Source: Geosiphon pyriformis uo1 (taxonomy: Eukaryota > Fungi > Glomeromycota). Taken from it: a DNA stretch of 64,000 nt. Of the stretch, positions 1,730 to 56,148 are shown one piece after another. The notes beneath the pieces are model-generated. The model saw only the letters and a program-made list of their open reading frames with translations. It ran no database searches and had not been told where the DNA came from. The translations under genes were made by a program, and so were the position numbers. The stretch spans positions 434,001 to 498,000 of the forward strand of contig JAAOMT010000135.1 of the NCBI GenBank assembly GCA_016748015.1, written 5' to 3'. Each line of letters starts with the position of its first letter. The first letter of the stretch is position 1.

Positions 1730-2219
1730 CTATCAATACTTCATGTTGATAATAATTGATACTTAACCCTACTGGAACAATAGCTCTTAATCACGGCTAT
1801 TGATAAGATACTAACTTGCAATTGCTTTTGTTTACTTCTTTATTTTCTTTTATTTTCTTTTATTTCTTTTTGTTATTTCTTTGGTTTTACTAAATTGATT
1901 AAAGATTAAGTGCTAAGATACAGACATTATAGGGACTGGTAAAAGACCTGTGAAACAAGAGTAAAACACTCATAGATTTGAGGATAGCTTACTAGGAGGA
2001 TTACCAGCCACCATACTGAGAAAGAAATTTGACAAAACTACAGTTTCAGGAAGCTATGGATAAAACCATCAATTAAATCTCTGTCCATTATACAAAGGAC
2101 TCAACTTTAAAACCTTCAGATACAATCAACATACCAATGTCAACAGTTTTGTCAAGATATTAAGCACCAAGTTATGGATTTGTTATTTGATTTGAGACCC
2201 CAAATAATCATCTGTAACA
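1730..2219 (+). repeat. B1 5' LTR, 3' portion
   Basis: Near-identical to 20886-21163 plus 22062-22273; ends CATCTGTAACA. Confidence 0.9.
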
Positions 2220-2221
2220 TT

Positions 2222-2238
2222 TGGTGCTCCCTGTGAAG
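2222..2238 (+). promoter_or_regulatory. Primer-binding site of B1 (TGGTGCTCCCTGTGAAG)
   Basis: TGG starts 2 nt after the LTR; complementary to a tRNA ending GAGCACCA (Ile- or Thr-type by inference). Confidence 0.75.
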
Positions 2239-2278
2239 TATAATTTTACAGAGAACCAGCACCAACAACTAATCAACA

Positions 2279-5200
2279 GTGGCAAAATCAGAAAGTATAG
2301 GAGCAAACCATTTAGGATTTGCAAAATCCTTATTTCAATACTACTGTCAACACTTGAGATTAAATCACAATCATATATCAACGAAATCAGCCTTCAATTT
2401 CTACATCAATAAGAAAATTGCTTATTTGTTAGGGACACCAGTAAACACTGAATCAGCAAAAGAAACTTTTTACCACGAATTAATACAAAACACCAGCTTA
2501 CCAACAAATCACAATTTTGCATCCATCATTACTGAGATTAACAAAGAAATTAAACATCACACACAACAAAGATACCCAATCACCTACTCAAGTAAAGGCA
2601 AAGGAAAACTACAAACACCAACAGTAACACCTCAACAGATCCAACCACCCACTTGGAAGAAACACAGAATTGAATCACCTACAAATCCATTATATCATTA
2701 TACTTCTGAAAGTGCCATCCATATTACATCACCAAACATGTCTACATCAAATGTAACATCAACATTTGGATGATTCCCATTCCAAAGTAAACAAAGGAAA
2801 ACAGAATTACTAGGCCCATATGGCAAATATTTTGAAGGATTTCAATCGCAAACACCAATGCCATCAGAAATTTGATCACCACCACCTCCACCAGATTTTG
2901 GGATAGCCAATCCATGAGAAGTATCAGAATTTGAAGAAGAAAGAGAATCAGAAGATCAAAAATTTACTTACCAGAACCCAATCTCAGAAAACCCAGAAGT
3001 TGAAACCCCAAACGTTCAAACTCCGACAAATTTAAATCAAAAAAATCCGGAAATTGAGACTCCAAATATTCAAACACTGTGGAATCAAAATATTCTAAAC
3101 CCCAATTCAATCAATCAACCAAACTTATCTCCAAATACTACCACCAATCACCCACCAATTAACCCAATAGCAGAACCACTACTTTAACAACCAAATCAGC
3201 AAATTCAACAGCTGCAACAACAACTTTAACCACCCATTCAACAATAACAACCAAACATAGACCCAATGACATACATACCAATTGCAAAACTTGACAATTT
3301 CACTGGTGAAGAGGATGACGCCCAAGTATGGCTAACAATGTTGAGAAAGCCATTATCACAAATGGATGGAATGATGTCAAAGCTCTTCAAGCAATCCCAT
3401 ATTTTCTCAAGAACACTGCCAATTTCTGGTATTAGAGCCTAATCAATAAACACCAGGACTTCAATACATTCAAACTAGAGTTCCTAAGATATTTTAGTAA
3501 CAATAATAGTATCAACTAATTGATAAACACCTTTACTACTATCAAACAAGGAGACACAGAAGCAGTCACCACTTACTTGGAATGCTTCTATCAAAATCTG
3601 TGTCAAATCCAAGCAACTGATGCCAACTATTTCACAGCGCCACAAATCCTAAACCAATTTATTAGAGGACTGTATAGTAGCATCCTCCAATGCATACGTC
3701 CAATGCATCCAGTAGACTTTCAAACTGTAGTTACCAATGCCAGAGATTTTGAAGCAGCTAAACTCGAAGCCAATCATGCCCAAGCCATCAATCTAGTGAT
3801 GAATGGATCATCTGAATTGGATTCCAAATTGAAACAATTCAGTGATTTCATTAACCAGAAGCTTGAGGGATACTTAGCTGACAATTGCGCAATTTATCAG
3901 TCACTTCAATGACACAATAATTTAGGAATCACAAATTGCCCAGAAAATCAGTCGCATCCTTTATTATCCACCAATTAACTGTGGCAGCAAGAGACATGTA
4001 TCTACCACTATTGTGGTAAACAAGAACATTTGAGAATCGATTGTTGGTTAAAGATAGAAAACCAACAATTAGGAAATTAATATCGAAACCCCAATCACCA
4101 GTTTTTAACTCCAAGATATCAATCAAATGCAGAAATATATCAACCAAATTACATACCTATAATGCAGCCACAAATTTATCAGCCACCAATTTATCAGCCA
4201 ACAGCACTCGTTATTTATTACCTGCAGCCCCAACTCATTTATCAGCCACAGTCTTAAGTAATCTACCAGCTGCAATAAATGCAAACACTGCCACAGAACT
4301 TACCTCAAAATGGAACTCAAAGGCAGAAACTGACACAGCAAAGCTGGAGATCATCGATGGTGGTCTATCAACCGATCTCCAGTTCTATGGCACAACTATT
4401 AGGTTCTTGACAATGGAATTCAGATACCAGTTCCATTCAAAATCCGAATTCCCAACACTATTTAAGTCTTTTGGTTACTCCAGAAGATGTTATCTCCCAC
4501 AACTCAGAATTCAATCGACAATCAGTACTTACCAACAACATACCTCCAGCCACTGTTACTAATAACGAAACATTGGCTGCCATATTTCCTTTTGAATTCG
4601 AGGAAACCACAATGGTACTATTATTCAGTAGAGCCACCTTAGAGAAAAAACCTATCATGGTGATGTACACTGATGCAAAAGTCAATGGCCACCTCATCAA
4701 ACTGATCCTAGATAGTAAATCAGCTGGCAGCATTATCACAAGACAACTCATGGATCAATTAGGTCACCGAGTTGATCGAGCTGCCAGCACAAGAATTATC
4801 ACTGCTGATAAAGCAATTAAGACCTCTATTGGTGAAATTGATGACTTCCCCATAGAAGTCAATAGCATAATTATTCCAATCAAAGTACTAGTCATGGAAG
4901 CCACTTAGTACTAAGCACTAGTTGGTAATGACTGGCTCACAAAACAAATACCATTCTCGATTGAACCACTCAAGAGTTGCAACTTAGCCAAAACAGCTGA
5001 TACACACAAGTACCAGCAATGTGTAGCCATTTCAAACCCAGTCACATGCCAGCCCTACTAATTGACTTGGAGAAAGAGAAGCCAAAACCCACCTGGAAAG
5101 CATACCAAGTGTCATGGGCTGACAAAGACCACAATGAACTGCTCTCAATACTATCATGGGACAACAACAGAAAGAGAAAACAAAGAGAAGAGCTTACCTG

Positions 5201-5878: not shown

Positions 5879-6848
5879 TGTTATCAGACAAAATTAGAGA
5901 TATTATTTAGCATAAAAATTATCTTATAATTCCTATCATTAATTAGCATATATTATTGTTTCAAATTATCACTTATTACATTAGCAAAAATGTCCGAAAT
6001 TATCATTTAATTAATAACCCTAATTGTACACAACACAAATGTAACCTAATTGCGATGATCAATCATGCAATACCTCAAACTATGTAACATTTAAAAGTTT
6101 GCCGAAATTTATAGAAATTTGTTGAAATAATTGATAGTTCACTGAAATATCTAATAGTTTGTAGAAATAACTTGTAGTTCGCTAAAATGTATCTTTAGTT
6201 CAGCAAAATTGTAGAAAATAGCAAAGTTCAAGTTCATAGAATAGTGTTATAACAAGTTGTATAAAAAAAAAGCTTCTCTCTTTGAGAAAATATATCTTAC
6301 TTTAGTTTTATCACTTAGAACCATTCCTATACACACAAAAAGAAATAAATATTAAATAATTCGAAAAACCAAATTCTTTAATTATTTGCACTTGGAAAAT
6401 CCCCAAGAACCCAATTAACATTTTGAAATTGATTAACTACCAATTTCAGTAAACTGTTAGTGACTCCAGGCCTGGATAGAAAACGTTTCTCTTGACAAAA
6501 TTCTATTTCTTTTATTTTTTTTTATTTTCTTATCATAATCATTAAAGTAACCTACAGACGAGATTTCTGTAGAAGAGTTGACTTTCACAGCAAAGTAACT
6601 ACACATTTTAGTGAGCTTCCAGACGAACAATTCCTGGGAAAGAGTTGACATTTACTACAACATAACTACACAAAGCAACTGGCACGGAATTGGCCATTCC
6701 ACTTATAAGCCCAGCAGTTCAAATTATAGGAGATAATTTGAAAATAAATTCAGTTATTGGAGATTCAACCACATCCAAAAAACGTGAAATTCACAGTAAA
6801 CAAGCATTGACAACATTTAAGAAAAGAGACCAAAAACCTCCGGTAACA
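5879..6848 (+). repeat. A1 5' LTR (970 bp)
   Basis: TGTTATCAGA...CCGGTAACA; direct repeat of 14761-15741; TATA at ~6260; AATAAA at ~6344. Confidence 0.97.
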
Positions 6849-6850
6849 TT

Positions 6851-6867
6851 TGGTGCTCTCCCATGGA
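6851..6867 (+). promoter_or_regulatory. Primer-binding site of A1 (TGGTGCTCTCCCATGGA)
   Basis: 2 nt after the LTR; conserved in A2 (~32950-32966) and A3 (~23500-23516). Confidence 0.75.
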
Positions 6868-6894
6868 AATAACACAGCAACAACAAAATTCAAA

Positions 6895-9800
6895 GTAGCG
6901 ACCACACCAGATGCAACAACTCTAGAGTATTACCAATCAATTTACACCCACTGCAAGCAAAGATTCAACATTCCAGATGGAATTAAAGTTGTCAAGAAAT
7001 CAGTATACCAATACATTGAAAACCACATCAACAATTATCTTTTTGGAAATTACAATATCTCAGAAGTTAGAAGCAACCTTTACAATAATTTAGCACACTA
7101 TTCACAGTTGGGAACTAAAGACCTTAACAGTGAAACACTTGCCATTTACTTTCACGAACTCAATTTTAACATTATCAAATACTGTGAAGAAACATATTCA
7201 GTGCAGTCTCAATACACTATTGATTTTGAATCGAAAACAAAAACAAGCAACAAAGACAAAAACAAATTAAAGCAATATTCAAGAACCACCCCAAATACTT
7301 CAACACTACCAAAAACAACTGCCAACCATTTACAAACATCTGAACAAGGAACCAGTTCAAAACTTCCACTTACTATCACACTTTTTCCAGCTTCACTTGC
7401 ACAAGCACAAACACTTAATTCACCCTTAAATTGATTTGCAAGACCAGAAGATTTTACATCACTCAAAAGTCTCACCAGATAACAAGAACCCCTTTAAACT
7501 AGTTCCAATCTCCTTGATTTTTTAGCTGAAAATCAAAGTGAACACTCTGAGACAGCAGCAAATGAAGAAAACAACTCTGAAATAACTGAAGAAGAATCAA
7601 TAGACAGTGAAAACAAAGAAGACAAAATGACAACATACATTGCAAAAATCCCTGAATTCAATGGAGAAGATATTGAGACCAGTCTCCAAGAATGGCTCGA
7701 CCAAGTTACTAAAGCTGGAGATGCAAATGAATGGAATGCTGCCAGAATGTTAAGAACAATTCCCTACTTTCTCAAAGGAACAGCAGGAGAATGGTTTGAA
7801 AACTTGGCTGCTCCATTCAATGATTGGAATGCTTTCAAAGCAGTCTTCTTTGAACAGTTCACTGACAATAATACCTCTATCACCCTTTGTAATCATTTTC
7901 AAAATATCAAACAAGAACCCTCCGAATCTGTTATGACTTATATTGGGAAATTCAACAAACTTCTCAGACAAATTCGCCAACTCGAAACAAATGATTATTA
8001 TTCCAATGCTCAAATCTTGAATCAATTTATTGCTGGTCTAAAAGATAAACTAATTAAAAAGGTTTGCCCACATGCACCAGAAGATTTAAACTCTGCCATA
8101 CAGCATGCAAAAAGATACGAAATAGCCATAGAAGAGGCCAATCACACAAAACTTGTAAATTTGGCAATTGAAGAAACCAGCTCAGCAGCTGAGAAAAAAA
8201 TTGACCAACTCACAAAGAAGGTTAAAAACTATTTCACCAATCAACAACAACAGCAACCCCAAAGATATCAACCACCCCAAAGACGAAATCAAAATAACTT
8301 TGCACCACTTTCCAATAACCAGTCTCAAAATTGCCATTACTGTGAAATCTCTGGCCACTGAAAAAGAGATTGCAAAAAGCTATAACGAGACCAACAAAAT
8401 AGAAGTAATCAATGTTACCCTCCACTACAGCAATCTTATTATCAACTGCCACTACCAGCTTACTATCCACCAAGACCTCAATACCAAAATAACTATTATC
8501 AGCCCACCTCACAGCCAATCCAACAGCAATACCAACAATCGTTCACACAACATTATCAAGTACCTGCTCAAAGACTGCTTACACAGAATCAATTCACACC
8601 ACAAAACTGATACCAAGTAAACAACAATAGAATCAGTTTGAATAACCAATTGGTTTCTCAAAATTCCATTCAACCAAGACCCAACCACTACCACACTCAA
8701 CCCAGTTATTTAATAATGCCAGAAGAATAGGATTTTTATCATACTGCACCCTCGGAAGGTAGAGCTGCAGCACAACAACAAAACCCTTCCTATACTCTTA
8801 CCACAATTCCACCAGCCAGAATTGCTGAAAACGCTAACCTTTCAGATATATTCCCTTTTGAGTTCGAAGCAAATGAGTCACCATCCCTGCTTAGCAATGC
8901 AGCTGCCAATGAACAAAAAGCAATCACAGCTATGTACACTGAAGCAGAAGTTGAAGAAAAGACAATTCGCTTGATCTTAGACAGTGGATCCGCTGGAAGC
9001 ATTATTACCTACCAGTTAATGCAACAGTTGAAGAGAAATATTGACCAACCAGCTCAAACAGTAATCGTCACTGCCGATGGCATGAAAAAGACCCCAGTAG
9101 GAGAAATTAACAATTTTCCATTCACTCTTGATGGAATTACCATTCCAGTCAAAGTTCTTGTAATAGACACACCTCAGTACTAAGCTTTCGTCAGAAATGA
9201 TTGGCTTCAAAAAGCCAATGCTAATTTGAATTGGGAAACACAAGAGTTAACAATCTCCTACTAAGGACAACACGCCTGAGTATCTGCCACTTGTAGTACA
9301 TTCAACAAACACTTTGAAAAAGCCCCAGCTTTTGAATTCGAACCGGAAGAGGAAAAACCCCTCATTGAAACATTCATGGCTCTTGGATCAACATCCAACT
9401 GGGCTGATAAAACAGAACAAGAACATTTTACCCCACACTCTGAACTCAAACCCTCTGGATGAAATATCCCTTACTCAAAACCTGAACCAAGAAAACAATG
9501 CCCCTATATTCTCCTTAAATGTAAAGACTGCCACAAGAAACTATCATCAATGGGAGCCTGCATTTCACCTGAAAAAGAATATAAAAATCATACTTGTTAT
9601 TACTGCAAGGCTTGCCACAGAGAACAATGGGGCCATTTAATAAAAAGAAGCAGAAAATGGAACAACACTCCTTGTTTGACTTGTGGAGATATGCTACCAG
9701 AAGAATGCAATTGGATTGATGTAGCCATGAGAGGAGGAGTCTACAATCAGACCTGCCAATATGCTTTATCAATTTCAGAAAAAGTAAAAAGAGGAACACC

Positions 9801-12513
9801 CTTTAATGCGGTATACAACAGTGTTTTCAACAAACTTTATCACTACCCCCATGATGCTGAGATGATTTTTGACCTAGCAATAGCATTAATTAATGGAGCT
9901 ACCAAAGAAGATGTTTGCCAAATGAAGGAAGCAGAATACATTGAATACACCATGAAATTAGCTGGATTCGATTATGAAGACAAAGTAGAAGTCTACCACC
10001 AAATTGCAAGTCACACCTACCCAACTCAAGAAGCTCAAATTCAATGATTAGAGCAAATAAACATTAGGCTATGTAAAGAATGCATTATGCCTTGCAATGA
10101 ACAGTGGTGTCCTGAATGCTATACTCTTAGTATCCTCTTGCCCAGCAAAAATGATGAGAACAAAATTAAATTTGGAGAACCTGAAGCAATAGAAGAAATT
10201 GAAACAACACCTATCTACCTTATCGAAAATTAGCCTGCCTTACAACTTAAATACTTCAACAACAACGGACAAGGAATAAAACCTGAAAAAGCACACGAAA
10301 TTAATGCTGGATATGACCTAAGATATCCAGGCAAGGATACTCTTGTTCTCAAACCCAAATCTCTCACAAAAATCAACCTCAAAATTGCACTCGAAATCCC
10401 ACTAGGAGCAATAGTTCAAATTACCTCCTGGTCCTCTCTGGCAAGCAAAGGAATCAATGTCAGAGGAGAAATAATCGATGCTGAATATACTGGAGACATT
10501 ACAGTGATGCTTCAAAATGAAACTGACAAACCATTCAAGATCGAACATGTTGAAAAAATTGCCCAAGCTATTTACCTACCCTTAATCAACATTTCAGGTT
10601 TGCAACTAGTCAATCAAAGAGAACAATTAGAAAAAAGTGATAGAGGAACCCAAGGTTTTGGTTCAACTGGACAATTCACAGTTCCAGTTAACATAGCTCT
10701 TAACACATGGAACGAATCCCACCAGATTCTCAGACTTCCACAACCAATTACCATCTCACCCTTTGGAGAACATTCAAAAATCTACACCTGCCCAAAGCCA
10801 ACAACCACACAACAAATTTTTGAGTCCAATGAACAAGTCTGCTTGGAACATAATATTTCAATCCCAAACATTTATATTCCAGAAGGAACAAAAAAAGTCC
10901 GAGTTACTTTTTACAACCCCAATAATTACCCCATAATTTTATTAAATAATTTAGAAATTGGAGTTATTCACAGTAATATATTTCAACAAAAATTCCCCCA
11001 AACAGTCCCCAATTTCTCTGAAATTATTGGACATTCAATACCAAAAATCAACCCAAACCCCAGCTCCAAAAACTACCATGTTGTCAGGGAAAAACTATCT
11101 CAAATCAACATGGGACAACTTGAACCACAACAACAGATCCAGCTCAAAGAGCTAATTGCAGAATTTGCTGATATCTTTGCTGAAAACAACAATAACTTAG
11201 GAAGAACCAATTTGGTCCAACACCAAATTTATACAGGAGATGCCAAACCAAAAAGACAACAAGCATATCAAGTTGCTCCAGAAAGCCACCAATTCATCTG
11301 AGAAGAAGTACAACAAATCCTTAACAATGGGCTCATCCAACCCTTCATGAGTTCTTAGGCTTCACCTGTAGTGCTAGTTAAAAAGAAAAATAGAAAGATC
11401 CAATTTTGTGTTGACTATCGACAACTCAACAGTGTTACAATTGGAGATGCCTATCTCCTTCCCCGGATTGATAACATGTTAGATGCTCTTGGAAAATCCA
11501 AATACTTTTCAACACTAGATTTAGAAAGTGGTTACTGGCAAGTTGCTATGGATCCCAAAGATCACTCCAAAACAGCATTCACTACCCAAGGCAGAAATTA
11601 CGAGTTCAATGTAATGCCTTTCGGATTATGCAATGCACCAGCAACGTTTCAGAGATTAATAGATGTTGTGTACCAAGAACTTCTTTGGAAATCAGTAGTC
11701 ATTTATCTTGACAATACTGATGTTTATTCTCCATCGTTCAAATTACACTTAAAACATCTGCGAGAAGTTTTTCAATGATTACAAAAAGCAGAACTAAAAC
11801 TCAATATCGAAAAATGCTACTTTGAAAAAACAAGCCTGGTCTTCCTTGGTCATATTGTTAATAAAGATGGAATTAAACCAGATCCTGGAAAAATCAGCAT
11901 TGTCAAAAACTTCAAAACTCCTCGGAACACTACAGAACTAAGAGGATTCATGGGATTAGCATCCTACTATCGGAAGTTTATCAAAAAATTTTTGGAAATT
12001 GCAAAACTCCTCAACCAGCTCACTACCAAAAACGTTAAATACAAATAGACTACTGAACACCAAAAAGCTTTTGAAATTCTCAAGGAAAAACTGACAACAG
12101 CTCCAATTCTCGCCTACCCAAATTTCAACAACTGATTTCGACTAGCTACAGATGCTTCATATACTGCCTTTGGTGCTATCTTATCACAACTAGATAACAA
12201 CAAAAATGAGTAAGTAATTGCTTATGCTAGCAGAACATTAAAACCAGCTGAGAAAAACTATCCTGCCACAGAACTAGAAACAGCAGCCATAATTTGGGCC
12301 TTACACCACTTCAACCTTTATCTTAGGCCTAAAGAATTCGATATTATCACTGATAATATTGGACTCAAATAGCTTCAGAACAAAAATACTCAGCTGAATG
12401 CAAAACAAACCCAATGGACAAAATTTCTAGCAAACTATTGATACATAGTACATCACAAACCAGAAAAACTCCACACCAATGTTGACTGTCTCTTCAGAAT
12501 AAGACAAGATTAG
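6895..12513 (+). pseudogene. gag-pol: A1 ORF1: N-terminal domain, Gag, CCHC, protease, Cys-rich domain, dUTPase, RT, RNase H in one frame with ~20 nonsense substitutions
   Basis: ORF pieces at 6850, 7627, 8932, 9550, 10504 and 11371 share frame 1. Motifs: CHYCEISGH*KRDC at 8332; LILDSGSAGS at 8971; FCVDYRQLN; MPFGLCNAPATFQ; YLDN (decayed YLDD) at 11704; ATDAS at ~12145; natural stop RIRQD* at 12511. Confidence 0.93.
10240..10671 (+). other. dut: Trimeric dUTPase domain between protease and RT (A1)
   Basis: All five motifs are recognisable: AGYDL (10306), SWSSLASKG (RSS), GEIIDAEYTG, KIAQAI, RGTQGFGSTG (10642-10671). Homologues at ~16140-16533, ~29150-29590, ~35231-35625 and ~51820-52220. Confidence 0.9.
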
Positions 12514-13951: not shown

Positions 13952-14072
13952 TTTAAATTTATTATTATAGTTATCTTCTTATAATTTAGAAACAATCTCA
14001 CAAAAACAAAACAAAAATAACATAAAAACTCATGCACCAAAAATAATTTTCTTTTATTTCAAATTGCTTATA

Positions 14073-14792
14073 ATGACTATTCCTCAAAACATTCAACAAT
14101 TATCCCAAAAACTAATGTTAGCTTTAAAAACAATACCCGAATTATCCATTACTGTTACTGGAAACTACATTAATTATACCCAAACAGAAGTAGTTACAAA
14201 TTTAGCCCCAAATTCACGAAAATATTATCCGTATAAGAAGAATACAAGAAGTTATACTGGAATTCACCTGCCAGAACTTTTAAAACTTGCTTTAAAAGAA
14301 AATCTAATGCTCACTCCGATTAGTATTCCACCAAATGCTACAATTCAACAAAGACTTCAACTGTGTCTCAATGAGGAAAACACTGAATATCCTCCAATCT
14401 ATAGATATTTTCACATTGGAAAAACACTCTACAAACAGAAACTAAAACTTACAACAGCAAACCTCACAAAAAAAGCTATTCAGAAACAACTCCACAACGA
14501 ATTCAAAACAACAGCTGGATCAACAAATAGTTACTACAGGCTCAGAGCTGCTCTTAGACTTTATGACCTATTCCACACCTGTGAAAACGTACTACAAAAC
14601 CCAATTTTTCAATCTTTGAAGATTCAATACATTGGAAAGCTCACAGAACTGAAATTTCAACAATTTTCAGACCAAATTTCTTCAATAATTTTGGATTATT
14701 ATCTGGAAATAACAAACAGTACTTGGACTTCGACGGAGCTCAGTCTTGAGGAGGAGGTTATGTTACCAGACAAAATTAGAGATATTATTTAG
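14073..14792 (+). CDS. A1 ORF3, intact 239-aa protein of unknown function in the env position
   Basis: Open from ATG 14073 through the PPT and 32 bp into the LTR; homologous ORFs in A2, B1, B2, B3 and C. Confidence 0.8.
   Translation: MTIPQNIQQLSQKLMLALKTIPELSITVTGNYINYTQTEVVTNLAPNSRKYYPYKKNTRSYTGIHLPELLKLALKENLMLTPISIPPNATIQQRLQLCLNEENTEYPPIYRYFHIGKTLYKQKLKLTTANLTKKAIQKQLHNEFKTTAGSTNSYYRLRAALRLYDLFHTCENVLQNPIFQSLKIQYIGKLTELKFQQFSDQISSIILDYYLEITNSTWTSTELSLEEEVMLPDKIRDII
14748..14757 (+). promoter_or_regulatory. Polypurine tract of A1
   Basis: GAGGAGGAGG 3 nt before the LTR TG. Confidence 0.85.
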
Positions 14793-15741
14793 CATAAAAA
14801 TTATCTTATAATTCCTATCATTAATTAGCATATATTATCGTTTCAAATTATCACTTATTACATTAGCAAAAATGTCCAAAATTATCATTTAATTAATAAT
14901 TCAAATTGTACACAACACAAATGTAACCTAATTGCGATGATCAATCATGCAATACTCTGAACTATGTAACATTCAAAAGTTTGCCAAAATTTATAGAAAT
15001 TAGCCGAAATAATTGATAGTTCACTGAAATATCTAATAGTTCGTAGAAATAACTTGTAGTTTGCCAAAATGTATCTTTAGTTTAGCGAAATTGTAGAAAA
15101 TAGCAAAGTTCAAGTTCATAGAATAGTGTTATGATAAGTTGTATAAAAGAAGAGCTTCTCTCTTCGAGAAAATGTATCTTACTTTAGTTTTATTACTTAG
15201 AACTATTCCTACACACACAAAAAGAAATAAATATCAAATAATTCGAAAAACCAAATTCTTTAATTATTTGCACTTGGAAAATCCCCAAGAACCCAACTAA
15301 CATTTTGAAATTGATTAGCTACCAATTTCAGTAAACTGTTAGTGACTCCAGGTCTGGATAGAAAACGTTTCTCTTGACAAAATTTTATTTTTTTTACATT
15401 TCTTTTATTTTCTTTTATTTTCTTATTATAATCATTAGGGTAACCTACAGACGAGATTCCTGTAGAAGAGTTGACTTTCACAGCAAAGTAACTACACATT
15501 TTAGTGAGCTTTTAGACAAGCAATTTCTGGAAAAGAGTTGACGTTTACTACAACGTAACTACACAAAGCAACTGGCATGAAATTGGCCATTCTACTTATA
15601 AGCCCAGCAGTTTAAATTATAGAAGATAATTTGAAGATAAATTCAGTTATTGGAGGTTCAACCACATCCAGAAAATGTGAAATTCACAGCAAATAAGCAT
15701 TGACAACATTTAGGAAAAGAGACCAAAAACCTCTGGTAACA
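14761..15741 (+). repeat. A1 3' LTR (981 bp)
   Basis: 10-bp perfect terminal inverted repeat TGTTACCAGA/TCTGGTAACA. Confidence 0.97.
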
Positions 15742-20517: not shown

Positions 20518-22273
20518 TGTTACTCATAGAATATAGAAAATATATTAGCACATGAAATAGCCAATTAGAGATAGCCGTAGTAAATGTGGAATTCCAGGAT
20601 TCCTCTCAAGAGGAATTGCAGGATTTCAGGAATTTCAGGATTCTCTGGGCAAGGAATTGCAGGATTCCAGAATTCCAGGATTCCTCTTAAAAGGAATTGC
20701 AGGATTCCTGAGGTGAAGAATCGAGGAATTGAGGAATCTCAATTATGTATATATAGCAGTAGTGTTAGAAGTAGGAAAGGCAGAATCTTTAGTTAGAAAA
20801 CCTCTCCATTTAGATTTTTATCTAAGCAACTTTCCAAATCACAAATATTAATAAATAATTATTCACTATCTCAATTCACTCTTTACTATCAACACTTCAT
20901 GTTGATAATAATTGATACTTAACCCCACTGGAACAATAGCTTTTGATCACAGCTATTGACAGGATACTAATTTGTAATTGCTTTTGTTATTTTCTTTATT
21001 TTTTTTTATTTTCTTTTATTTCTTTTGTTATTTCTTTGGTTTTGCTAAAATTGATTAAAGATTAAGTGCTAAGATACAGACATTATAGGGACTGGTAAAA
21101 GACCCATGAAACAAGGATAGAATACTTATAGATTTGAGGATAGCTTACCAGAAGGATTACCAGTGTTACCAGACAAAATTAGAGATATTATTTAGCATAA
21201 AATTATCTTATAATTCCTATCATTAATTAGCATTGTTTCAAATTATCACTTATTACATTAGCAAAAATGTCTGAAATTATCATTTAATTAATAATCCAAA
21301 TTGTACACAACACAAATATAACCTAATTGTGATGATCAATCATGCAATACCCCGAACTATGTAACATTCAAAAGTTTGCTGAAATGTATCTTTAGTTCAG
21401 CGAAATTGTAGAAAATAGCAAAGTTCAAGTTCATAGAATAGTGTTACAATAAGTTGTATAAAAGAAGAACTTCTCTCTTCAAGAAAATGTATCTTACTTT
21501 AGATTTAATAATTAGAATCATTCTTTACACACAAAAACGAAATAAATATCAAATAATTTGAAAAATCAAATCCTGAATTATTTCACTTTTGAAATTAACT
21601 AATTTCTACTAAACAGTTTGAAATTGATTAGCTACCAATTTCAGTAAACTGTTAGTGATTCCAGGCCTGGATAGAAAACGTTTCCCTTGACAAAAATTCT
21701 ATTTCTTTTACATTTTTTTTATTTTTCTTTTATTTTCTTATTACAATCATTAGGGTAGCCTACAGACGAGATTCCTGTAGAAAAATTGACTTTCACAGCA
21801 AAGTAACTACACATTTTTAGTAAGCTTCCAGATGAGCAATTCCTGGGAAAGAGTTGATGTTTACTACAACGTAACTACATAAAAGCAACTGGCAAGGAAT
21901 TGGCCATTCCACTCATAAGCCCAGCAGCTCAAATTATAGGAGATAATTTGAGAATAAATTCAGTTATCGGAGATTCAAACACTTTCCATAATTGTAAATT
22001 AACAGCATTACAACAAACATACAAGAGCTAAGAAGAGACCAAAAATCTCTAGTAACACCAGCCACCATACTGAGAAAGAAATTTGACAAAACTGCAGTTT
22101 TGGAAAACTATGGATAAAATCATTAATTAAATTTCTGTTTATTATACAAAAGACTCAACTCTAAAATCTTCAGATACAACCAACATACCAGTGTTAACAG
22201 CCTTGTCAAGATATTGAGCACCAAGTTATGGATTTGTTATTTGATTTGAGACCCCAAATAATCATCTGTAACA
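20518..22273 (+). repeat. B1 3' LTR, interrupted by a solo A LTR
   Basis: TGTTACTCAT...TCTGTAACA; follows PPT AAAAAGGAAGGAA; U3 array of GGAATT/AGGATTCC units at ~20588-20740. Confidence 0.92.
21164..22057 (+). mobile_element. Solo LTR, family A (894 bp), TSD CCAG
   Basis: TGTTACCAGAC...CTAGTAACA; CCAG at 21160-21163 and 22058-22061; a single CCAG at the equivalent site in the B1 5' LTR (~2004). Confidence 0.95.
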
Positions 22274-23473
22274 ATGTTTAATAGCTATTGCTAAGTTTTC
22301 TGGTAAATGTGGATGCACTTTTTTTATGAGTTTATCTTTTAATCCAGCAATGAATTGATCTAAAATTTGGGTATTAGAATAGTATTCATTGGTTTTCAAC
22401 TGGTAAATTCTTCTGAGAAGTTTGTTGAACTTTTCTAGGTAAGTTATAACTGATTTACTTGGTTCTTGTTTAATATTCCAAAACTGATTTTGGAGAGTAA
22501 TAGATGTGTTGTTGTTAGTGAATTGTTGTAAAAAAGCATTTTTAAATGCTTGCCAGTTCTTAAAGAGTGCATTTAAGTTTTCAAATCATTCTTCTGCTGT
22601 TCCTTGAAGAAAGTAGGAAATTGCTTTAAGCATTCTTGCTGTATTCCATCCATTTGCATCTCTTGCTTTCTGGACTTTGTTAAGTTATTTTTGTGAACTG
22701 GTATTATTATCTTTACCAGTAAATTCTGAAATCTTTGCAATATAAGCAGTTGCCATTTCTTCTTTGTTTTCTGTAGTTTCTTCTTATTCTGATTCAGTTT
22801 TTTTACTTTTCAAGTTCTCTGAATAATTATTTTCGTTTTTTTGTAAGTAATCAATAATATTGGTGTTGATTGATATTGGTTTTTGCTGTTGAATAAAATT
22901 TTTAGGTGACTAAAAATCTTCTGGTCTGGAAAAATGGTTAAGTAGTAAATTTGGTGTTTGTGATTAAGCAAATGAAATTGGTAATGGTGTAATAGAAAGT
23001 AGTAATTTGACACTGGTTTCTTGTTCTGGTGTTTGCAAGTGTTTGGCAGTTATTTTTGGTATTTTTAGAGTATTTGGGGTGGTACTTGAGTGTTGTTTTA
23101 GTTTTTGTTTGCCTTTGTTGCTTGTTTCTGTTTCTGATTCAAAGTTAATAGAGTATTTAGACTGTACTGAATATTTTTCTTCACAATACTGAATATTGTT
23201 GAAATTAAGTTCTTGGAAGTAGGTATCAAGTGTTTTACTATTAAGATCTTCAGTTCTTAATTGTGAATAGTGCACTAAATTATTGTAGAGGTTGTTTCTA
23301 ACTTCTGAAATGTTGTAATTTCCAAAAAGATAATTGTTGATATTGTTTTTAATATACTGGTAAAGTGTCCTTTTAACAATTTCAATTTCGTCTAGAATGT
23401 TGAATTTCTGCTTGCAATGAATGTAAATTGACTGGTAATACTCTAAAGTTGTTGTGTCTGGTGTAATTGCCAC
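22274..23473 (-). pseudogene. gag: A3 N-terminal domain and Gag fragment
   Basis: GTG at 23473 (VAITPDTTTLEYYQ), MATAYIAKISEF; homologous to 6895-8105. Confidence 0.85.
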
Positions 23474-30300: not shown

Positions 30301-32923
30301 AATAAGATATATGGTGGTTTTTTTTGTGGTTTTGGTGTAGAATATCTAACTTTCTTCCATCCTCTTAATTCTTCAAAAATCTCTTGTTCTGTTTTTTCAG
30401 CCCAATTAGATGTTGATCCAAGTGTCATATAAGTTTCAGTAAGTGGCATTTCCTTCTCCTCTTTAAATTCAAATACTGGGGCTTTTTCTGATCATTTATT
30501 AAAAGTGCCACAAGTAGCAGGTACTATGGTGTATTGTCCTTGGTATGAGATTTTGAGTTCCTGAGTTTCCCAATCTAACTTTGTAATGGCCTTGAGAAGC
30601 CAATTATTTCTGATGAGAGCTTAGTATTGAGGTACATCCATGACTAGAACTTTGACTGGAATGGTAATTCCATCAATAGTGAATAGGAAATTGTCAATTT
30701 TTCCTACTGGTGTCTTTTTTATATTATCTGCTGTAACAATTACTGTTTGGGCTGGTCTGTCAACATTTCAATTAAGTTGTTGTATTAATTGGTAAGTAAT
30801 AATACTTTTAGTGGATCTACTGTCTAGAATTAATCGAATGGGCTTTCTTTCTACTGTAGCTTCAGTGTATATGACAGTAATAGCTTTTTGCTCATTGACT
30901 GCTGCATTGCTAAGCAAGAATGGTAATTTATTTGCTTTAAATTCGAATAGAAATATATCTGAAAAGTTGGCATTTTGGGCAATTTGGGCTGGTGGAATAG
31001 TATTGTTGAAAGAGTTTGATCTTAGTACTGCAACTTCACCTTCAGAAAGTGCAATTTGTTGAAAATCCGATTCTTCAAGTATTGTAAGATAGCTGAGTTA
31101 AATGTGATAGTGATTTGGTTTTTGTTGACCAGAATTTTGGGGAACCAACTGGTTATTTGGGTTGATTCTGTTGTTATTATTACTAAATTGATTTTGAGGT
31201 GTGAATTAGTTATGTTGAACTAATCTTTTGGCTAGTATTTGATATTGTTAAGTGGGTGGTGTCTGATATTGCTGAATTGGTAAAGATTGCTAATATTGTT
31301 GCTGTATTGGTTGTGGAGCTGGTTAATAGTAACTGTTTTGATTTTGTGGTCTTGGTGAGCAATAAGTTGATAGTGGAGATTGGTAATAAGATTGTTGTAG
31401 TGAAGAGTAATGTTGATTACTCCTGTTTTGTTGGTCTCTCTGTAATTTCTTGCAATCTTGTTTCCAGTGTCCTGAAATTCCACAATAATGACAATTTTGA
31501 GGTTGGTTGTTGGATGGTAATCCAAAGTTGTTTTGATTACATCATTGTGGGGGTTGGTATTTTTGTGGTTGTTGCTGCTGTTGTTGTTGATTTGTAAAGT
31601 AGCTTTCAACCTTTTTTGTGAGTTGATCTATTTTCTCTTTAGCTGTTGAGCTGGTTTTTCCAATAACTTGATTGACAAGTTTGGTGTGGTTTGCTTCTTC
31701 CATTGCCATTTCATAGTTCTTTGCATGTCTAATGGCAGTTGCTAAGTCTTTTGAAGCATGTGGACAAACTTTTTTAATGAGTTTGTCTTTTAATCTTGCT
31801 ATGAACTGATCCAAAATCTGGACATCAGAATAGTATTCATTGGTTTCTAATTGTCAAATTTGTTGAAGAAGTTTGTTAAATCTTTCAAGATAGGTCATAA
31901 CAGTTTCAGATATTTCTTGTTTGATATTGTGAAAGTGATTGCAAAGAGTGATAGAAGTGTTGTTATTAGTAAATTGTTATAGGAAAGCATTTTTGAATGC
32001 TTGCCAGTTTCCAAATAGTTTTTTTAAGTTTTCAAACCATTTTCCTGCAGTTCCTTGAAGAAAGAATGGGATTGCTTTAAGCATTCTTGCTGCATTCCAA
32101 CCATTTGCATCTCCTGCTTTTTGAACTTTGTCAAGCCATTTTTGTGAACTGGTATCATTGTTTTTACCAGTAAATTCTGAAATCTTTGCAATGTAAGCAG
32201 TTGTCATTTTTTTTTGTTTTCTGTAGTTTCTTCTTGTTCTAATTCAGTTTCTTTACTTTCTAAGTTTTCTGAATGATTACTTTCATTTTCCTGTAAGTAA
32301 TCAATAATATTGGTGCTTGTTGATATGGGTTCCTGCTGTTGAGTAAGATTTCGAGATGACTGAAAGTCTTCTAGTCTGGAGAAATGGTTAAGTGGTAAAT
32401 TTGGTGTTTGTAGTTGAGCAAATAAAATTGAAAATAGTGTAATAAAAAGTGGTAATTTGATACTGGTTCTTTGTTCAGGTGTTTGTAAGTGTTTGGCAGC
32501 TGTCTTTGGTGTCTTTGGAATATTTGGAGTGGTGCTTGAATATTGCTTTAGTTTTTGTTTGCCTCTGTTGCTTGTTTCTGTTTCTAATTCAAAGTCAATA
32601 GAATATTAAGACTGTACTAAATATGTTTCTTTACAATACTTGATAATGTTAAAATTAAGTTCTTGAAAGTAGGTGGCAAGTGTTTTACTGTTAAGGTTTT
32701 CAGTTCCCAACTGTAAATAGTACACTAAATTATTGTAAAAGTTGCTTTTAACTTCTGAAATGTTGTAATTTCCAAGAAGATAATTGTTGATACAGTTTTC
32801 AATATACTGGTAAAGTGTCTTCTTAACAATTTCAATTCCGTCTGGAATGTTGAATCTCTACTTGCAATAAGTGTAAATTGACTGGTAATACTCTAGAGTT
32901 GTTGTGTCTGGTATAATTGCTAC
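27304..32923 (-). pseudogene. gag-pol: A2 ORF1 (N-terminal domain, Gag, PR, Cys-rich, dUTPase, RT, RH)
   Basis: Fragments 31977, 31542, 30189, 29256, 28920 and 28282 are homologous to A1; natural stop KIRQD* at 27304. Confidence 0.9.
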
Positions 32924-40377: not shown

Positions 40378-42036
40378 GCATTTTAGTGATAAAGTAAATT
40401 TAAGTTTTGGGAATTCAAAAAGAGTTGCTAACCAATTTGTTGATATGAATACTGACAATAATACTAATAATAAGAGTAAAAATCAGTCAGATTCTAGAAT
40501 AAATACACCTAAGACCAAAAAAGTCAATGCTTATGTTGTTCTTAATTCTTCAATCAGCTCTTTGGTTTATGATATAAATAATAAAAATGAAATTTTTTTC
40601 CCACCTACCTATTTTTTTGGACTAAAAATGAATTAACTCAAAAATTGTTAAAATCCAGATAAAAATTGCTATCAAAAAATCATTTACTTTGAATATTAAT
40701 TTTTTTGCAGTAAAAGACAAATCAATGACCATAAAAACTCAATTAGTTAGAAATTTTTTTTCAACAATCAATGGTTTTGGGAGACTATTATTTTCTTAAA
40801 TTTGAAAAGATTATCAGATTTACATTTATTTTAGAGGAAAGCATGAAAAAAGCTGTATTATTGGCTAAAAAAAGAGAAATCAAGGTAAATAGCAATCTTA
40901 AAAGACAAGAAATTAGGTCAAATTGGACTGTAATAATCAAAAAAATTCTCATAGATATGTCTAAAGAAATGATCGTCGCTGCCATTGCTGAATATGGTCA
41001 AATTATGCCGATCAAATTGCAACTAATTGGAATATAACAAAAAATTGTGATTAAGTTTGCCAAATTATGATATTTGAACATCAAAAAATCAGTTTAGGGC
41101 ACTTTTATTTATCTTGCTAGTAAGAACAACTGTACATAATTTTGGAACTTTTTTGGAAGAAGCTAATAAAAAAACTTATATATAAATTAATTATTTGAAA
41201 CTAGCAATAAGGTTTGCTGTATTGTAATTGGTTTTGAATCAGAAAAAAAACTGGATTCTGTTTTTCACATAAAATTTATTTTTGGTGGTGTAAAATTATT
41301 TTGGGTTAGAATAGATTTGATTTAGTGTAAAAAATATGGACATTTCAGGTATTCTGCTTTAGAATATAATATATCTGATGTTTTTGCTTATCTTTTTCCA
41401 AAAATATTTAAGAAATTTGTTTCAGATAAGAATTGTTTTCAGTTTGCCAAACTGTATACCAAAAAGAGTGTCCTTATTTCTTGTCTTACTGTTTTTAGTA
41501 GCAAATTTTGGGCTTATGTGATTTCACTTGCTGTTTTTTTTAAAAATACTTGCTTTGGTTTTGGTTTTTTTTTCTGATACTTTATATAGTAAAAAAAGTG
41601 TGTCTGTTTTTTAGAATAATTTATTAATTGATGGCTATCTAGCTTCTTTAAAATGCTCTTTGAAACTTTTGGCAGATCAAGTATCAAATATTGTGCAAAA
41701 GTTAAACAGTATAGATCTGATGTCTGTTTTTTAATCTCTTTTTTTTGATGTATATGTTCTTGCAAATTCAAAATCAAATTTGAATATGGCTTTAAATAAC
41801 TCATCCAAGTTACCTATTTTTCTTTCTTTGACTGTAAACAGTATGATTTTGGATTTGAGTTTTAGCAGATTAAAGGTTCTAATCACTAAAATAAGTAAGT
41901 TGGAATCTAAAATGGTGGTTCTTAAAGTTTTTGTTAGTTTGGTTTTGGTGAGATTGGATTGGTTGTGTGTTGGCTTGAACTTTTTTGTGAATTCTTTCTC
42001 TCAATAAATAAGTTTGTTTAAAAAATAGCTATATGT

Positions 42037-43025
42037 TGTTACAGGTAATTATTTGGGTGGGTAAAATAGATAACAAACCCATAATTTGGTGCTTAATTAA
42101 TGTAATAGTGTTGGTTTCTAAAGATTTTGTATCTGAAAATTTTGGTTAAGTCTTTTGTATAATAAACAGAGATTTAATGGTAATATCTTTTGGTGCTGTT
42201 TTAAGTTTTTTTTCTCAACCTTCAAGTTGGTATGCTTTGGTATCTGTCATTTTCTAGAATATCTATATTTTATCAATTTTTTTCTCAACTTAATGGCCAG
42301 TATCTTCTGGTAAGCTATCCTCAATTCTGAGTGTTTATCTTTATTCCTGGGTCTTTTACTAGTGCTATTTTTTAATGTCAGTATCTTACATATTAATTCT
42401 TTTAATCAATTAGTAAATCAACAAAACAACAAAATAAAATAAAATAAAATAAAATAAAATAAATAAAAATAAAATAAAATAAAATAAAAGAAAAAAAAAA
42501 TTAATATTCCATCAATAATTATGATCAAGAGCTATTGGTCCAAAATAGTTAAATATTAAATCTTATTAACATAGAGTATTAATAGTGATAAAAGTGATTA
42601 ATATTCTTAATCAAGTAATAATAACATGGATTTGATAATAATAAATAATTTTATTAATAAAAAAATAATTTTACTTCAAGTTATAAAAAATTATCTTTTA
42701 AAAGAAGAATATTGTTCTAAATTAATAAAACTTTATTGAATTTTCCAGGAATTATTTTTTCTGTTTTTAATACTCTTGCTATATATATAATTTATGTTAT
42801 ACAAGATTCTGCATATTTATAAGCAATGTGCCATAATTTCTTAAGCAATGTGTTTGTAATTTTTAATAATGTGCTTATTATTAAGCAATGTGCCATAATT
42901 CTCTAACAATGTGCTTTAATTTACTGACAATGTGTTTACATGCTAAATACTATTCTCTTATTAATCTATTTTTTACTATTTATTTTTTCTACTATTTTTC
43001 TTGTATATTTTTTCTATGAATAACA
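42037..43025 (-). mobile_element. Solo LTR, family B (989 bp), TSD ATGT/ATAT, inserted in APE motif I of LINE copy 1
   Basis: TGTTACAGG...ATGAATAACA on the + strand; homologous to B LTRs; no PBS or PPT in the flanks. Confidence 0.88.
42431..42489. repeat. (AAAAT)n microsatellite expanded from the T-rich tract of the B LTR
   Basis: About 12 units are directly visible. Confidence 0.85.
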
Positions 43026-52900: not shown

Positions 52901-55900
52901 CAGGAATGTTATTCCATATTTCTTTGTTGGGCAAATGGTTTTACATGTAAGACATGATTTGTTGTTCTATTTTCCTTGTTATTTTGGTCATTCAAAACAT
53001 TCTATAATGCATGGGCAATAATAGAATCTTGTTGCTGTGTAGTATTTCTCGTCATCACTACAGCATGCACCTATTGATGACAATTTTTTGCCACAATCAA
53101 CACATATAAGCTTTGGTCAGCAATAAGTGGATTATTGTGGTGTAGTGTAGATATAGAAATTATAAGTGATGGTGCTAATAGATGTTGTTTTTTCTTCTTT
53201 TTCTTTTTTTTTTCCCTTGTCAGTTTCTTCCTAATCCCAAGTTGATAATTTGTTCAGGTTATTGTTAGTTCTTTAAGCTTGGTTAGCATTCCAGATAAGT
53301 TCTTTTTTTTGTTTTCCTTTTTTATTGTCATCTCAGGGGAGTATTGGCAGTAATTTATTGTGGTTATCTTCAGCTTATAACACTTGATAGGCTTTCCAGG
53401 TAGGTTTTTTCTCTTTTTCTTCAAACTCGATGAATGATGCTGACATGTTGGTGGTCTTGAAATGGCCACATGTGACTGGTATACATGTATGTTGACTGTT
53501 TTGGCTAAGTTAAAGCTCTTGCATGTTCCAATCAAGCATTGCATTGGTTTTAAACAGCCAATTGTTACCAATAAGTGCTTGGTATTAAGTGGCTTCTATG
53601 ATTAATATCTTGATTGGCACAATGATACTATTGATTTCTATAGAAAAGTCATTAATCTTGCTGATCAGAGTTTTGGTCGTTCTATTAGCAGTAATGATAT
53701 ATGCGCTGGCAGCTCAATTATCTTGGCAACCTAATTGGTCCATGAGTTGTTTTGTGATGATGCTGCCAGTTAATTCACTATCTAAGATCAGTTTGATAGA
53801 GTAGCTATTAACTTTGACATTAATATACATGACAGTAATAGGTTTTTCTTCAAGAGCAGCTTCACTAAATAACAGCATAATTGACAGTTCCTCAAGTTCA
53901 AATGGGAAGATGGTGTCCAGTGATTTTGTTTTTGGTAATAATAGCTATTAGAATATTGTTAGTAGATATTAGAGTGTGATTGGTTTTCTGGTTGTTGGAT
54001 AGAGTGTCTTCTGGAGTTACCAAAAAACTTAAATAGTTCTAAGAATTCGGGTTTTGGGTATATCCAACTCCCAAATTCCACTGGCATAATCCTAATGAAT
54101 TTGATGAACTGAAGATCAGTTGGTGAACCACCATTGCTGATATTCAGTTTTGGATGACTCTAGATCTGGGGTTTCCTGATGTAGTGTTTGAAGTTGTCAA
54201 GATTAATAAATTACTGATAACTATAATTAATATATTACTTGTGGCTGCAGTTGATAAACTAAAGATTAATATATGGGTGGTTGATAAATAGGCTGCTGTA
54301 TTATTAACAGGTAAGTGGATTAATATTGATCTTGATTTGTATAATAATTCAGCATTTGAAGTTTGCAATTGGGATTTCTATATTGATTTTTCAATTATAT
54401 GTTACTATAAGAATGGCAGTTAGCTTGGATATGGTCTTGTTTACCACAGTTGTGGCAGACATATGTTTCTGGCTGCCATGGCTGATTGGATAATAAGGAT
54501 GGACATGGCTGATTTTGAAAATGGTTTATGTTTCTTTAATTACTGTATCATTGTAGAGGTTGATAGATTGTCTAATTATTGTTAGCTAAGTATTCTTTGA
54601 TTTTCTGATTGATTGAATTGCTGAAGTGCTTCAGTTTGGAATTTAGGTCAGATAATCTATTCATTACTAAATTTACAGCTTGGGCATAATTGGCCTCTAA
54701 TTCAACTGACTCAAAATCTCTGGTGTGTGTGACTGCATCTTGTAAAATAACTGGATGCATTGGGTGTATGCATTGTAGGATGTTGTTGCATAATTTGCAA
54801 ATAACTGATTCAAGATCTGCACTACCATAAAATAATCGGTGTTAATGGCTTGGATCTGGTGCAGATTCTTGTAAAAGCATCCTAAGTAAATAGTAACTGC
54901 TTCTGTGTCTCCTTGTTTTATAATAGTAAAGGTACTTATTAAGTGATTGATGCTGTTATTATTACTGAAGTATCATAAGAATTCTAATTTGAATGCATCA
55001 AAGTTTTGGGATTTCTGGACTAAGCTATAATACCATGAGTTGGTAGTATTCTTGAGAAAATATGGGATAACTTGCATTGTTCTGGTATCATTCCAGTTAT
55101 TGGCAGTAATGGTTTTAGTGATATCATTGATTTATGCTTGGGCATTATCTTCTTTACCAGAAAATTTTTTCAGCTTTATAATTGGTGCATATGTTATATG
55201 TTGTTATTGTTGTGATAGTGGTGGTGGTTGAAGTTGTTGTTGCAGCTATTGAAGTGGTTGTTGTGGTTGTTGTATTGGCTGATTGATCACAATTATTAAA
55301 GGTAAGTTTGGTTGAGTAATTAAATCAGGATTTGGATTGTTCTGATTTTACAGTGGTTGAATATTTGGAGTTTCAACTTTTTGACTTCTAAAAATCAGGT
55401 TTTTCAGAGTTTAAATGTTTGGGGTTTTAACTTTTGGGTTTTCTAGGATCGGATTTTGGTAAGTAAATTTCTGATCCTCACTTTTTTCTTCTTTTAATTC
55501 TATTACTTCCCACAAACTCGTGGTTCTGAAATCTGGTTGAAGTAGTGGTAATCAAAATCCTAATGGCATGGGTGATCACAATTTAAATTCTTTAAAATAT
55601 TCACCATATGGTCTTAATAATTCTGCTTTTCTTTGTTTACTTTGAAATAGAAATTGTCCAAAGGTTGATGTTGTATTTGATGTGGACATGTCTGCTAAAG
55701 AGATATTGATGACACTTCCTGGTATATAATAGTATGATGGATTGGGTGGTGATTCAACTCTGGTTTTCTGTCAAGTAAGTGGTTGTAGCTTTTTGGGTGT
55801 TACTGCTGGTGTTTGTAATCTTTTTTTGTTTTTGTCTGCATAGGTAATAGGGAATTGTTGTTGAGTGTACCTTTCAATGGTTTAATTGATTTCTCTAATA

Positions 55901-56148
55901 ATTGGTATGAAACTATAGTTTCTTGGTAAGCTGGTATGTTGGAACAATTCTGTATAGAAATTTTTTCTTGCAGATTCAATGTCAACTGTTCCTCTTAAAC
56001 AGTCTGTGATTTTATCATTAATGTAAAAGTTAAAGACTGATTCTGTTGAGAAATAATTATTGTTTAATCTTAATTGTTGGCTGTACTGTTGAAACAAGGA
56101 TTTGGTAAATCTTAAATGGTTTGTTTTTATGATTTCTGATTCTGCCAC
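49992..56148 (-). pseudogene. gag-pol: B3 ORF1 (N-terminal domain, Gag, PR, Cys-rich, dUTPase, RT, RH)
   Basis: GTG at 56148 (VAESEII); fragments 54572, 52545, 51930, 51432, 51078 and 49992 are homologous to B1; natural stop MRQI*. Confidence 0.9.

Follow-up and report, generated by a model that had tools for sequence, protein, structure and literature searches.

In two distantly related families of Ty3/Gypsy LTR retrotransposons of Geosiphon pyriformis, here called A and B, the polyprotein frame probably opens at a GUG codon and runs in frame into the AUG of the capsid, and leaky scanning would then give a long and a short polyprotein from a single RNA. The extension of about 240-330 codons between the two sites is coding and under purifying selection. 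An earlier note on this DNA had proposed that long and short Gag isoforms are made by a GUG start and leaky scanning; that proposal is supported by the present analysis, in which initiation is deduced from decayed copies. According to the suggested scheme, ribosomes would scan an AUG-poor leader. A minority of them would start at the GUG and make the long polyprotein, and the remaining ribosomes would leak past it to the capsid AUG and make the short polyprotein on the same RNA. We infer that the GUG is used for initiation, that the long form is the minor one and that both forms are needed.

Elements of the window

The window, i.e., the whole stretch of 64,000 nucleotides that was analysed, is a nest of LTR retrotransposons with strongly depleted CpG (observed/expected 0.17). 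All copies in it are decayed, with LTR identity of 88-93% and many stops. The features used below are as follows (positions are those of the window).

5879 to 6848, plus strand: 5' LTR of A1, TG...CA, target duplication ACAA, partner LTR at 14761-15741
6260 to 6266, plus strand: TATA-like box, read from the sequence and kept in LTR copies, with AATAAA after it at 6344-6349
just downstream of 6260 to 6266, plus strand: presumed (putative) transcription start
6267 to 6848, plus strand: R/U5 leader of A1, where indels of 1-2 nt break the frame
6851 to 6868, plus strand: PBS-like sequence of A1, TGGTGCTC...
6878 to 6894, plus strand: CA-rich spacer of A1 from CACAG to the start codon, ending with A at -3
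6895 to 6897, plus strand: proposed start codon of A1, GTA in this copy; 93% of the depth summed over contigs has G at 6897
6895 to 7209, plus strand: N-terminal domain of A1, about 105 aa, four predicted helices, no known family found
7210 to 7626, plus strand: linker of A1, basic, then Ser/Thr/Pro-rich, then acidic, with decay stops at 7432, 7480 and 7495
7627 to 8400, plus strand: Gag ATG, Ty3-type capsid and zinc knuckle of A1, the frame running on into the aspartic protease
2279 to 3268, plus strand: extension of B1, 329 codons, GTG at 2279, Gag ATG at 3266
22754 to 23473, minus strand: extension of A3, 239 codons, GTG at 23473, Gag ATG at 22756
32205 to 32923, minus strand: extension of A2, GTA at 32923, Gag ATG at 32207, 1-nt loss in an A-run just before the ATG
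55190 to 56148, minus strand: extension of B3, GTG at 56148, Gag Met codon decayed to ATA
2221 to 2265, plus strand: predicted hairpin of family B that sequesters the PBS and includes TTTTACAG (z=-2.79)

The two LTRs of A1 are 92.8% identical and are bounded by a 4-bp target duplication. This element is inserted within B1 (window 1728-22273), whose 3' LTR in turn holds an inserted solo A LTR at 21164-22057, flanked by the 4-bp duplication CCAG. Two other long copies, A2 and B3, lie on the minus strand; A3 is partial. Very AT-rich, more diverged LTR relics related to A and B lie at 61527-62498 and 42018-42604.

Direct LTRs with TG...CA ends, a target duplication, a PBS and a PPT are all present, and the integrase lies 3' of the protease region, as in Ty3/Gypsy elements. 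Pfam recognised Ty3_capsid, Retrotrans_gag, Asp_protease_2, dUTPase, rve and SH3_Tf2-1 in the ORFs of the window, and RVT_1 and RNase_H in related gene models only. A1 has two protease-like regions on either side of a dUTPase, one matching Asp_protease_2 (8731-9180, plus strand) and the other weakly matching Spuma_A9PTase (10234-11298, plus strand); family B has a dUTPase too. The stretch between the first protease and the dUTPase (9460-10047, plus strand) is Cys-rich with CxxC repeats and gave no Pfam match. At the 3' end of A1, a stop-free frame of 273 aa (13971-14792, plus strand) runs into the 3' LTR, also with no Pfam match, and is possibly an extra ORF.

LTR elements make up 41.2% of the G. 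pyriformis genome (PMC11952901), and families A and B are numerous among the gene models of this fungus. The copy statistics rest on five window copies, 422 public proteins and one DNA run, which may be the source of the assembly. Contig depth in this run is summed over contigs and is not copy number; the variant rows taken from it are the 40 listed of 180, and position 6895 is outside those 40. All protein matches listed came from G. pyriformis, namely 87/87 for the A extension, 96/96 for the B extension and 120/120 of those listed for the capsid out of 440, so the host is this fungus or one very closely related to it. A 32% capsid match (L001) was rejected as a relative, being unrelated phage-like DNA.

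Extension and its first codon

The earlier note had placed GTG at 23473 in A3, 2279 in B1 and 56148 in B3, and the Gag ATG at 7627 in A1 and 3266 in B1; all these positions are correct. The frame that it had described ahead of the Gag ATG is present over 244 codons in A1 and 329 in B1. It opens at AAA/ACA-GTG-GC in A3, B1 and B3, as had been reported, and at AAA-GTA-GC in A1 (6895) and A2 (32923).

The extension of A1 is interrupted by three in-frame stops (7432, 7480, 7495), which are attributed to decay because other copies carry Arg or Gln at those sites; 7480 and 7495 are C in 98-99.6% of the contig depth of the DNA run. Several in-frame stops are found in the B1 extension as well. In 20 of the 111 gene models spanning the extension, the frame can be followed from about codon 3 into the capsid without any deletion above 7 aa; the larger gaps in the others are likely predicted introns around stops. 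Within codons 1-105, differences at codon positions 1/2/3 number 15/8/23 for A1/A2, 12/12/34 for A1/A3 and 33/18/45 for B1/B3, so that third positions exceed second ones (P=0.005, 0.0008 and 0.0004, respectively). The leaders show no third-position excess (P=0.96, 0.96, 0.42). No indels were found in codons 1-105 of the compared copies. Those of the linker are multiples of three, save one loss of 1 nt in an A-run of A2, and those of the leaders are mostly frame-breaking (7/8, 3/5 and 8/10).

A consensus ATG at the first codon, which the earlier note had said would refute its reading, was not found; the consensus is GTG. In motif-anchored gene models, codon 1 of family A (n=138) is Val in 115, Met in 16, Leu in 4, Ile in 2 and Asn in 1, and that of family B (n=86) is Val in 68, Met in 11, Leu in 6 and Ile in 1. 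The Met share is inflated since gene predictors favour ATG, and the models are biased toward copies having one: Met was counted in 13/130 at codon 1 vs. 2 at the internal GTG Val103. Six Met-start B models placed in a tree fall in different clades, as is expected from independent G-to-A decay. A GUG start would also explain the varied, likely artefactual 5' exons of the gene models, the predictors seeking an ATG that is absent.

The contigs of the DNA run also favour GTG. Position 6897 is G in 39535/42442 of the depth (summed over contigs, not a copy count). Over 2279-2284 of family B no other letter is listed at >=3%, at a depth of about 60,700-72,600 (summed contigs). A derivation of GTG from GCG by decay was rejected, as no Ala occurs at codon 1 in 224 gene models.

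The strong context claimed for this codon, A at -3 and G at +4, is kept while the phase of the leader varies. The preceding codon (Lys, Thr or Asn) starts with A in 59/60 classified B models, and the second codon starts with G in 103/110 A and 42/47 B models. Residue 2 is Ala, Val or Thr, and the extension thus has no Gly2. Gly2 for myristoylation is a feature of the retroviral matrix domain. Conservation of position and context but not of the upstream frame is the pattern of a start site; a counterpoint to this reading is that the copies could be mobilised in trans. A strong context is described as necessary for non-AUG initiation, and GUG as one of the codons that yield roughly 2-30% (PMC3542737). 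In fungi, near-cognate start codons flanked by A at -3 and G at +4 have been described as conserved (PMC5487733). In both families, then, an in-frame near-cognate codon in strong context stands upstream of the gag AUG, with the frame between them open in the family.

The downstream AUG is also kept. Met occupies the capsid start in 175 motif matches of family A and in 39/48 of family B, the other nine being Ile. It lies at the start of the Ty3_capsid match, and the short product would therefore be a complete Ty3-type Gag. The A1 frame goes from Gag on into the protease, and at its stops other copies have Gln, Arg or Trp. From these sequences, the long and the short isoforms are likely whole nested polyproteins.

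AUG depletion and possible routes to the two proposed products

The scarcity of AUG reported earlier is confirmed, and the AUG-poor stretch, which starts in the LTR, proved longer than had been described. A1 has no in-frame Met across 244 codons and no ATG in any frame at 6980-7561 (its ATGs are at 6863, 6911 and 6977, the next being at 7562), and B1 has none at 2279-2737. Counting against dinucleotide shuffles, proposed in the earlier note, gave P=0.014 (A1), 0.006 (A2), 0.001 (A3), 0.006 (B1) and 0.005 (B3) for the extensions, these values being per copy and the copies of one family not being independent. The leaders gave P=0.002-0.037, the capsid regions 0.29-0.90 and the pol of A1 0.85. 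A mild shortage of ATG is seen in the pol of B3 as well (66 vs. 78.3, P=0.025), and few ATGs occur in the Gln/Pro-rich region after NC, so composition contributes to the scarcity. Depletion of out-of-frame ATGs taken alone is modest (P=0.082 for A1, 0.002 for A3, 0.040 for B1, 0.046 for B3).

Triplets shared between copies gave a clear contrast in family A. Between 6260, where the TATA-like box lies, and the capsid ATG, 0/731 triplets common to A1 and A2 are ATG vs. 70/2623 downstream (P=6e-8); family B has 5/611 vs. 63/2936 (P=0.033). The CAT control gave P=0.86 (A) and P=1.0 (B). No column of the 242 in the family A extension has a Met majority and six columns have one afterwards; the share of Met among the residues is 0.03% within the A extension and 1.7% beyond it. 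The ATGs at 6911 and 6977 belong to A1 itself; C stands in the middle of these triplets in 75% and 89% of contig depth. Three extension ATGs are common to B1 and B3; other copies mostly have Ala/Thr/Val or Ser/Arg variants there, and these columns point to decay of ACG. The absence of a competing AUG between the two starts is thus clear in A and weaker in B. Purging of out-of-frame AUGs after the GUG would make sense only if ribosomes must reach the capsid AUG. In the LTR of family B, the ATG at 2056 alternates with ACA, and the ATG at 1743, present in 6/6 copies covering the site, opens a 7-codon uORF in weak context (1743-1766, plus strand).

A CA-rich spacer separates CACAG/TTTTACAG from the GTG by 17, 16 and 16 nt in A1, A2 and A3 and by 27 and 30 nt in B1 and B3. 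The phase of the leader, as the earlier note had claimed, is not conserved: all three phases occur and vary among replicated subfamilies. The 86 B gene models running through the spacer fall into phase classes of 38, 10 and 12, with 26 unclassified, the classes being assigned by pattern. On a tree of 49 rows these classes cluster (shuffles were as low in 0, 1 and 3 of 500) without being single clades, with 10, 4 and 4 changes. The contig depth of family B drops sharply over 2271-2278 and returns at the GTG. The R/U5 leader of family A has no ATG common to A1 and A2, and its copy-specific ATGs occupy columns that read ACG or ACA in other copies. T-rich, intron-like stretches are seen in the U5 of both families (6450-6558 and 1840-1910, plus strand), and 5'-leader introns are possible. 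In family B a predicted hairpin (2221-2265, plus strand) pairs the PBS with the downstream AGCACCA, TTTTACAG being its 3' arm; it could gate priming vs. translation. Its z is -2.79, and the two sequences give no support from covariation.

It was considered whether the GUG is the true start at all. Splicing might join an upstream AUG exon to the CACAG/TTTTACAG that follows the PBS, or create an AUG at a junction just inside the GTG; in either case the Val would be internal. TTTTACAG does resemble an acceptor and has no listed variant at >=3%, the B LTRs have one common ATG, and the intron-like stretches of U5 would suit such an exon. This route, which the earlier note had named as fatal to its reading, is nevertheless very improbable: the distance from acceptor to GTG occurs in all three phases, an upstream exon has nothing to supply in family A because no shared ATG follows its TATA-like box, and Asn before Val in 3/60 B models makes a junction without AG. 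PBS pairing in the hairpin offers an alternative reason for the conservation of TTTTACAG, the prediction resting on two sequences with no compensatory change. Splicing within the 5' leader is possible but, given the phase variation in these sequences, could not supply an in-frame AUG. No junction bounded by GT..AG was listed for the sequencing runs, two of which yielded just 7 and 3 records. Ty1 reads through the PBS from an AUG in its LTR. Because in many A copies the frame stays open further upstream, such read-through was considered here; it was rejected in view of the 1-nt indels of U5 and the lack of a shared ATG. A start at another near-cognate codon slightly downstream, or shunting in place of linear scanning, seems just as remote. 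[quoted passage not shown] Against these stand the conservation of protein over residues 1-15, upstream of or around those codons, the fact that GTG-GC with A at -3 is the only near-cognate start common in position to both families, and the AUG-poor leader, which suits linear scanning.

If the GUG starts the long form, the short one might come from a separate shorter RNA made by an internal promoter or splicing, as in the described precedent of Ty1 p22 from Ty1i RNA (PMC13709905). The capsid AUG of family B, with a pyrimidine at -3 in at least 44/47 models, has only a moderate context, and this weakness would fit such an origin. The separate RNA is nonetheless improbable, since it leaves the all-frame AUG depletion between the GUG and the capsid AUG unexplained, and the short form here is the whole capsid-nucleocapsid, not a C-terminal half. 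Slightly less probable still is the simplest reading of all, in which the GUG is the sole functional start of one low-level polyprotein and the capsid Met is merely internal. A weak start would limit activity, and AUG scarcity is partly compositional. Under this reading, however, one would have to account for the retention of this Met where the capsid begins in both families, whose N-terminal domains are 19% identical, for its being the first Met-majority column in both A and B, and for the purine at -3 of the capsid AUG in 175/175 A models. Leaky scanning from the GUG to the capsid AUG is thus preferred. A stimulating hairpin downstream of the GUG was not consistently predicted (z=0.83, 0.70, -2.04, -0.94).

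N-terminal domain and known systems

The alignment of the first ~100 aa between A and B, claimed in the earlier note, is not significant in a pairwise comparison (BLASTP E=0.12) and is significant by profile: HHalign gave a probability of 64%, E=6.6e-5 and 19% identity over 115 columns from codon 1 of both. Structure prediction, also proposed in the earlier note, was run with AlphaFold and gave four helices (residues 7-24, 31-49, 55-70 and 79-100) at pLDDT 65.3 and pTM 0.49. A second fold from a mixed A+B alignment has the same helices and is poorer (pLDDT 48.8). In Pfam, PDB sequences, viral contigs, metagenome contigs, the ESM Atlas and Foldseek PDB/viral, nothing usable was found as a relative outside Geosiphon. 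Among the best 150 of 267 matches in a domain profile search, 119 were new, all of family A (32) or B (87).

The top structural matches of the predicted domain are the four-helix major capsid proteins of archaeal filamentous viruses (SIFV, AFV1, SFV1, PFV2), with Z of 8.2 (rmsd 3.4, 90 aligned), 7.9, 7.9, 6.7, 6.5 and 6.1 for a model of pLDDT 65. Identity is 5-13%, and the Z values are under the ~13 from which the tool treats helical bundles as informative and within chance range. The likeness is a lead only. With this middling model, no retroviral matrix entry appeared among the best 50 structural matches. The extension has no hydrophobic segment (maximum 19-residue hydropathy of 0.48-1.12 in 6/6 sequences) and hence is not a membrane protein of the glyco-Gag kind.

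The role favoured for the extra domain, and the most speculative part of the model, is that of a minor, tethered targeting or nucleic-acid-binding module. It is possible, though doubtful, that the long form co-assembles at a low ratio, its predicted four-helix domain exposed on a flexible tether and serving, like a matrix, in targeting or nucleic-acid binding, or that the protease frees the domain as a low-abundance accessory protein. Taken as a whole, the boldest version is rather unlikely: an autonomous fungal Ty3/Gypsy lineage would set the ratio of two Gag forms by a GUG start and an AUG-purged path of 1.3-1.5 kb, the minor form bearing a new domain of four helices whose fold may be the nucleic-acid-wrapping one of archaeal filamentous-virus capsid proteins.

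The elements resemble Ty3/Gypsy (Metaviridae) in their LTRs, PBS, polypurine tract, Ty3 capsid, zinc knuckle, protease, RT and integrase. They differ in carrying a dUTPase, another protease-like region and an extra helical domain at the N-terminus, placed after a putative non-AUG start. A search of titles, abstracts and open-access literature found no report of non-AUG Gag in an autonomous LTR retrotransposon. The mechanism itself has precedents in glyco-Gag, PEG10 and RTBV; its probable occurrence in an autonomous fungal LTR retrotransposon and the longer extension appear to be new. The extension that opens at GUG is a well-supported feature of these sequences.

RTBV is described as having, across ORF I-III, a weak non-AUG AUU start (about 10%) and about 900 nt without internal AUG before the polyprotein AUG (PMC5902531). 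Like the Geosiphon elements, it is a reverse-transcribing element with a weak non-AUG start and an AUG-free path to a later AUG. In contrast to them, its AUU is described as reached by shunting and its upstream ORFs as separate proteins, not an in-frame extension. PEG10, a domesticated Ty3/Gypsy gag-pol, starts at an in-frame upstream CUG and at AUG according to the mutagenesis described in PMC2800197. It differs from the Geosiphon elements in being a host gene, in using CUG, in having only 34 extra residues and in that the non-AUG form is the major one (PMC2800197). No homology of PEG10 to the Geosiphon extension came up in the searches made.

The glyco-Gag of MLV (gPr80) is described as starting at an upstream in-frame CUG, with 88 extra residues and a signal peptide directing it to the ER (PMC5120145, PMC3542737). 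Similarly, the Geosiphon elements would use an in-frame upstream non-AUG start to make an N-terminally extended Gag beside the AUG-initiated one. The analogy drawn in the earlier note thus stands for the translation mechanism and fails for the membrane role. Unlike the CUG-initiated protein of a retrovirus, the extension belongs to a fungal retrotransposon, begins with GUG and adds 239-329 residues with no hydrophobic segment. Having no signal or transmembrane segment and a Ty3-type capsid instead of a gammaretrovirus gag, these elements fall outside glyco-Gag proper. Annotation based on AUG only would miss such domains in other elements. In the boldest version given above, the GUG-started long Gag would correspond to glyco-Gag as a matrix-like form without a membrane role, maintained in two families with 19% identity between their domains. 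With a GUG start as read here, non-AUG dual initiation of Gag would reach beyond gammaretroviruses and PEG10 into autonomous retrotransposons of a fungus, where the extension is much longer and contains a domain for which no known family was found.
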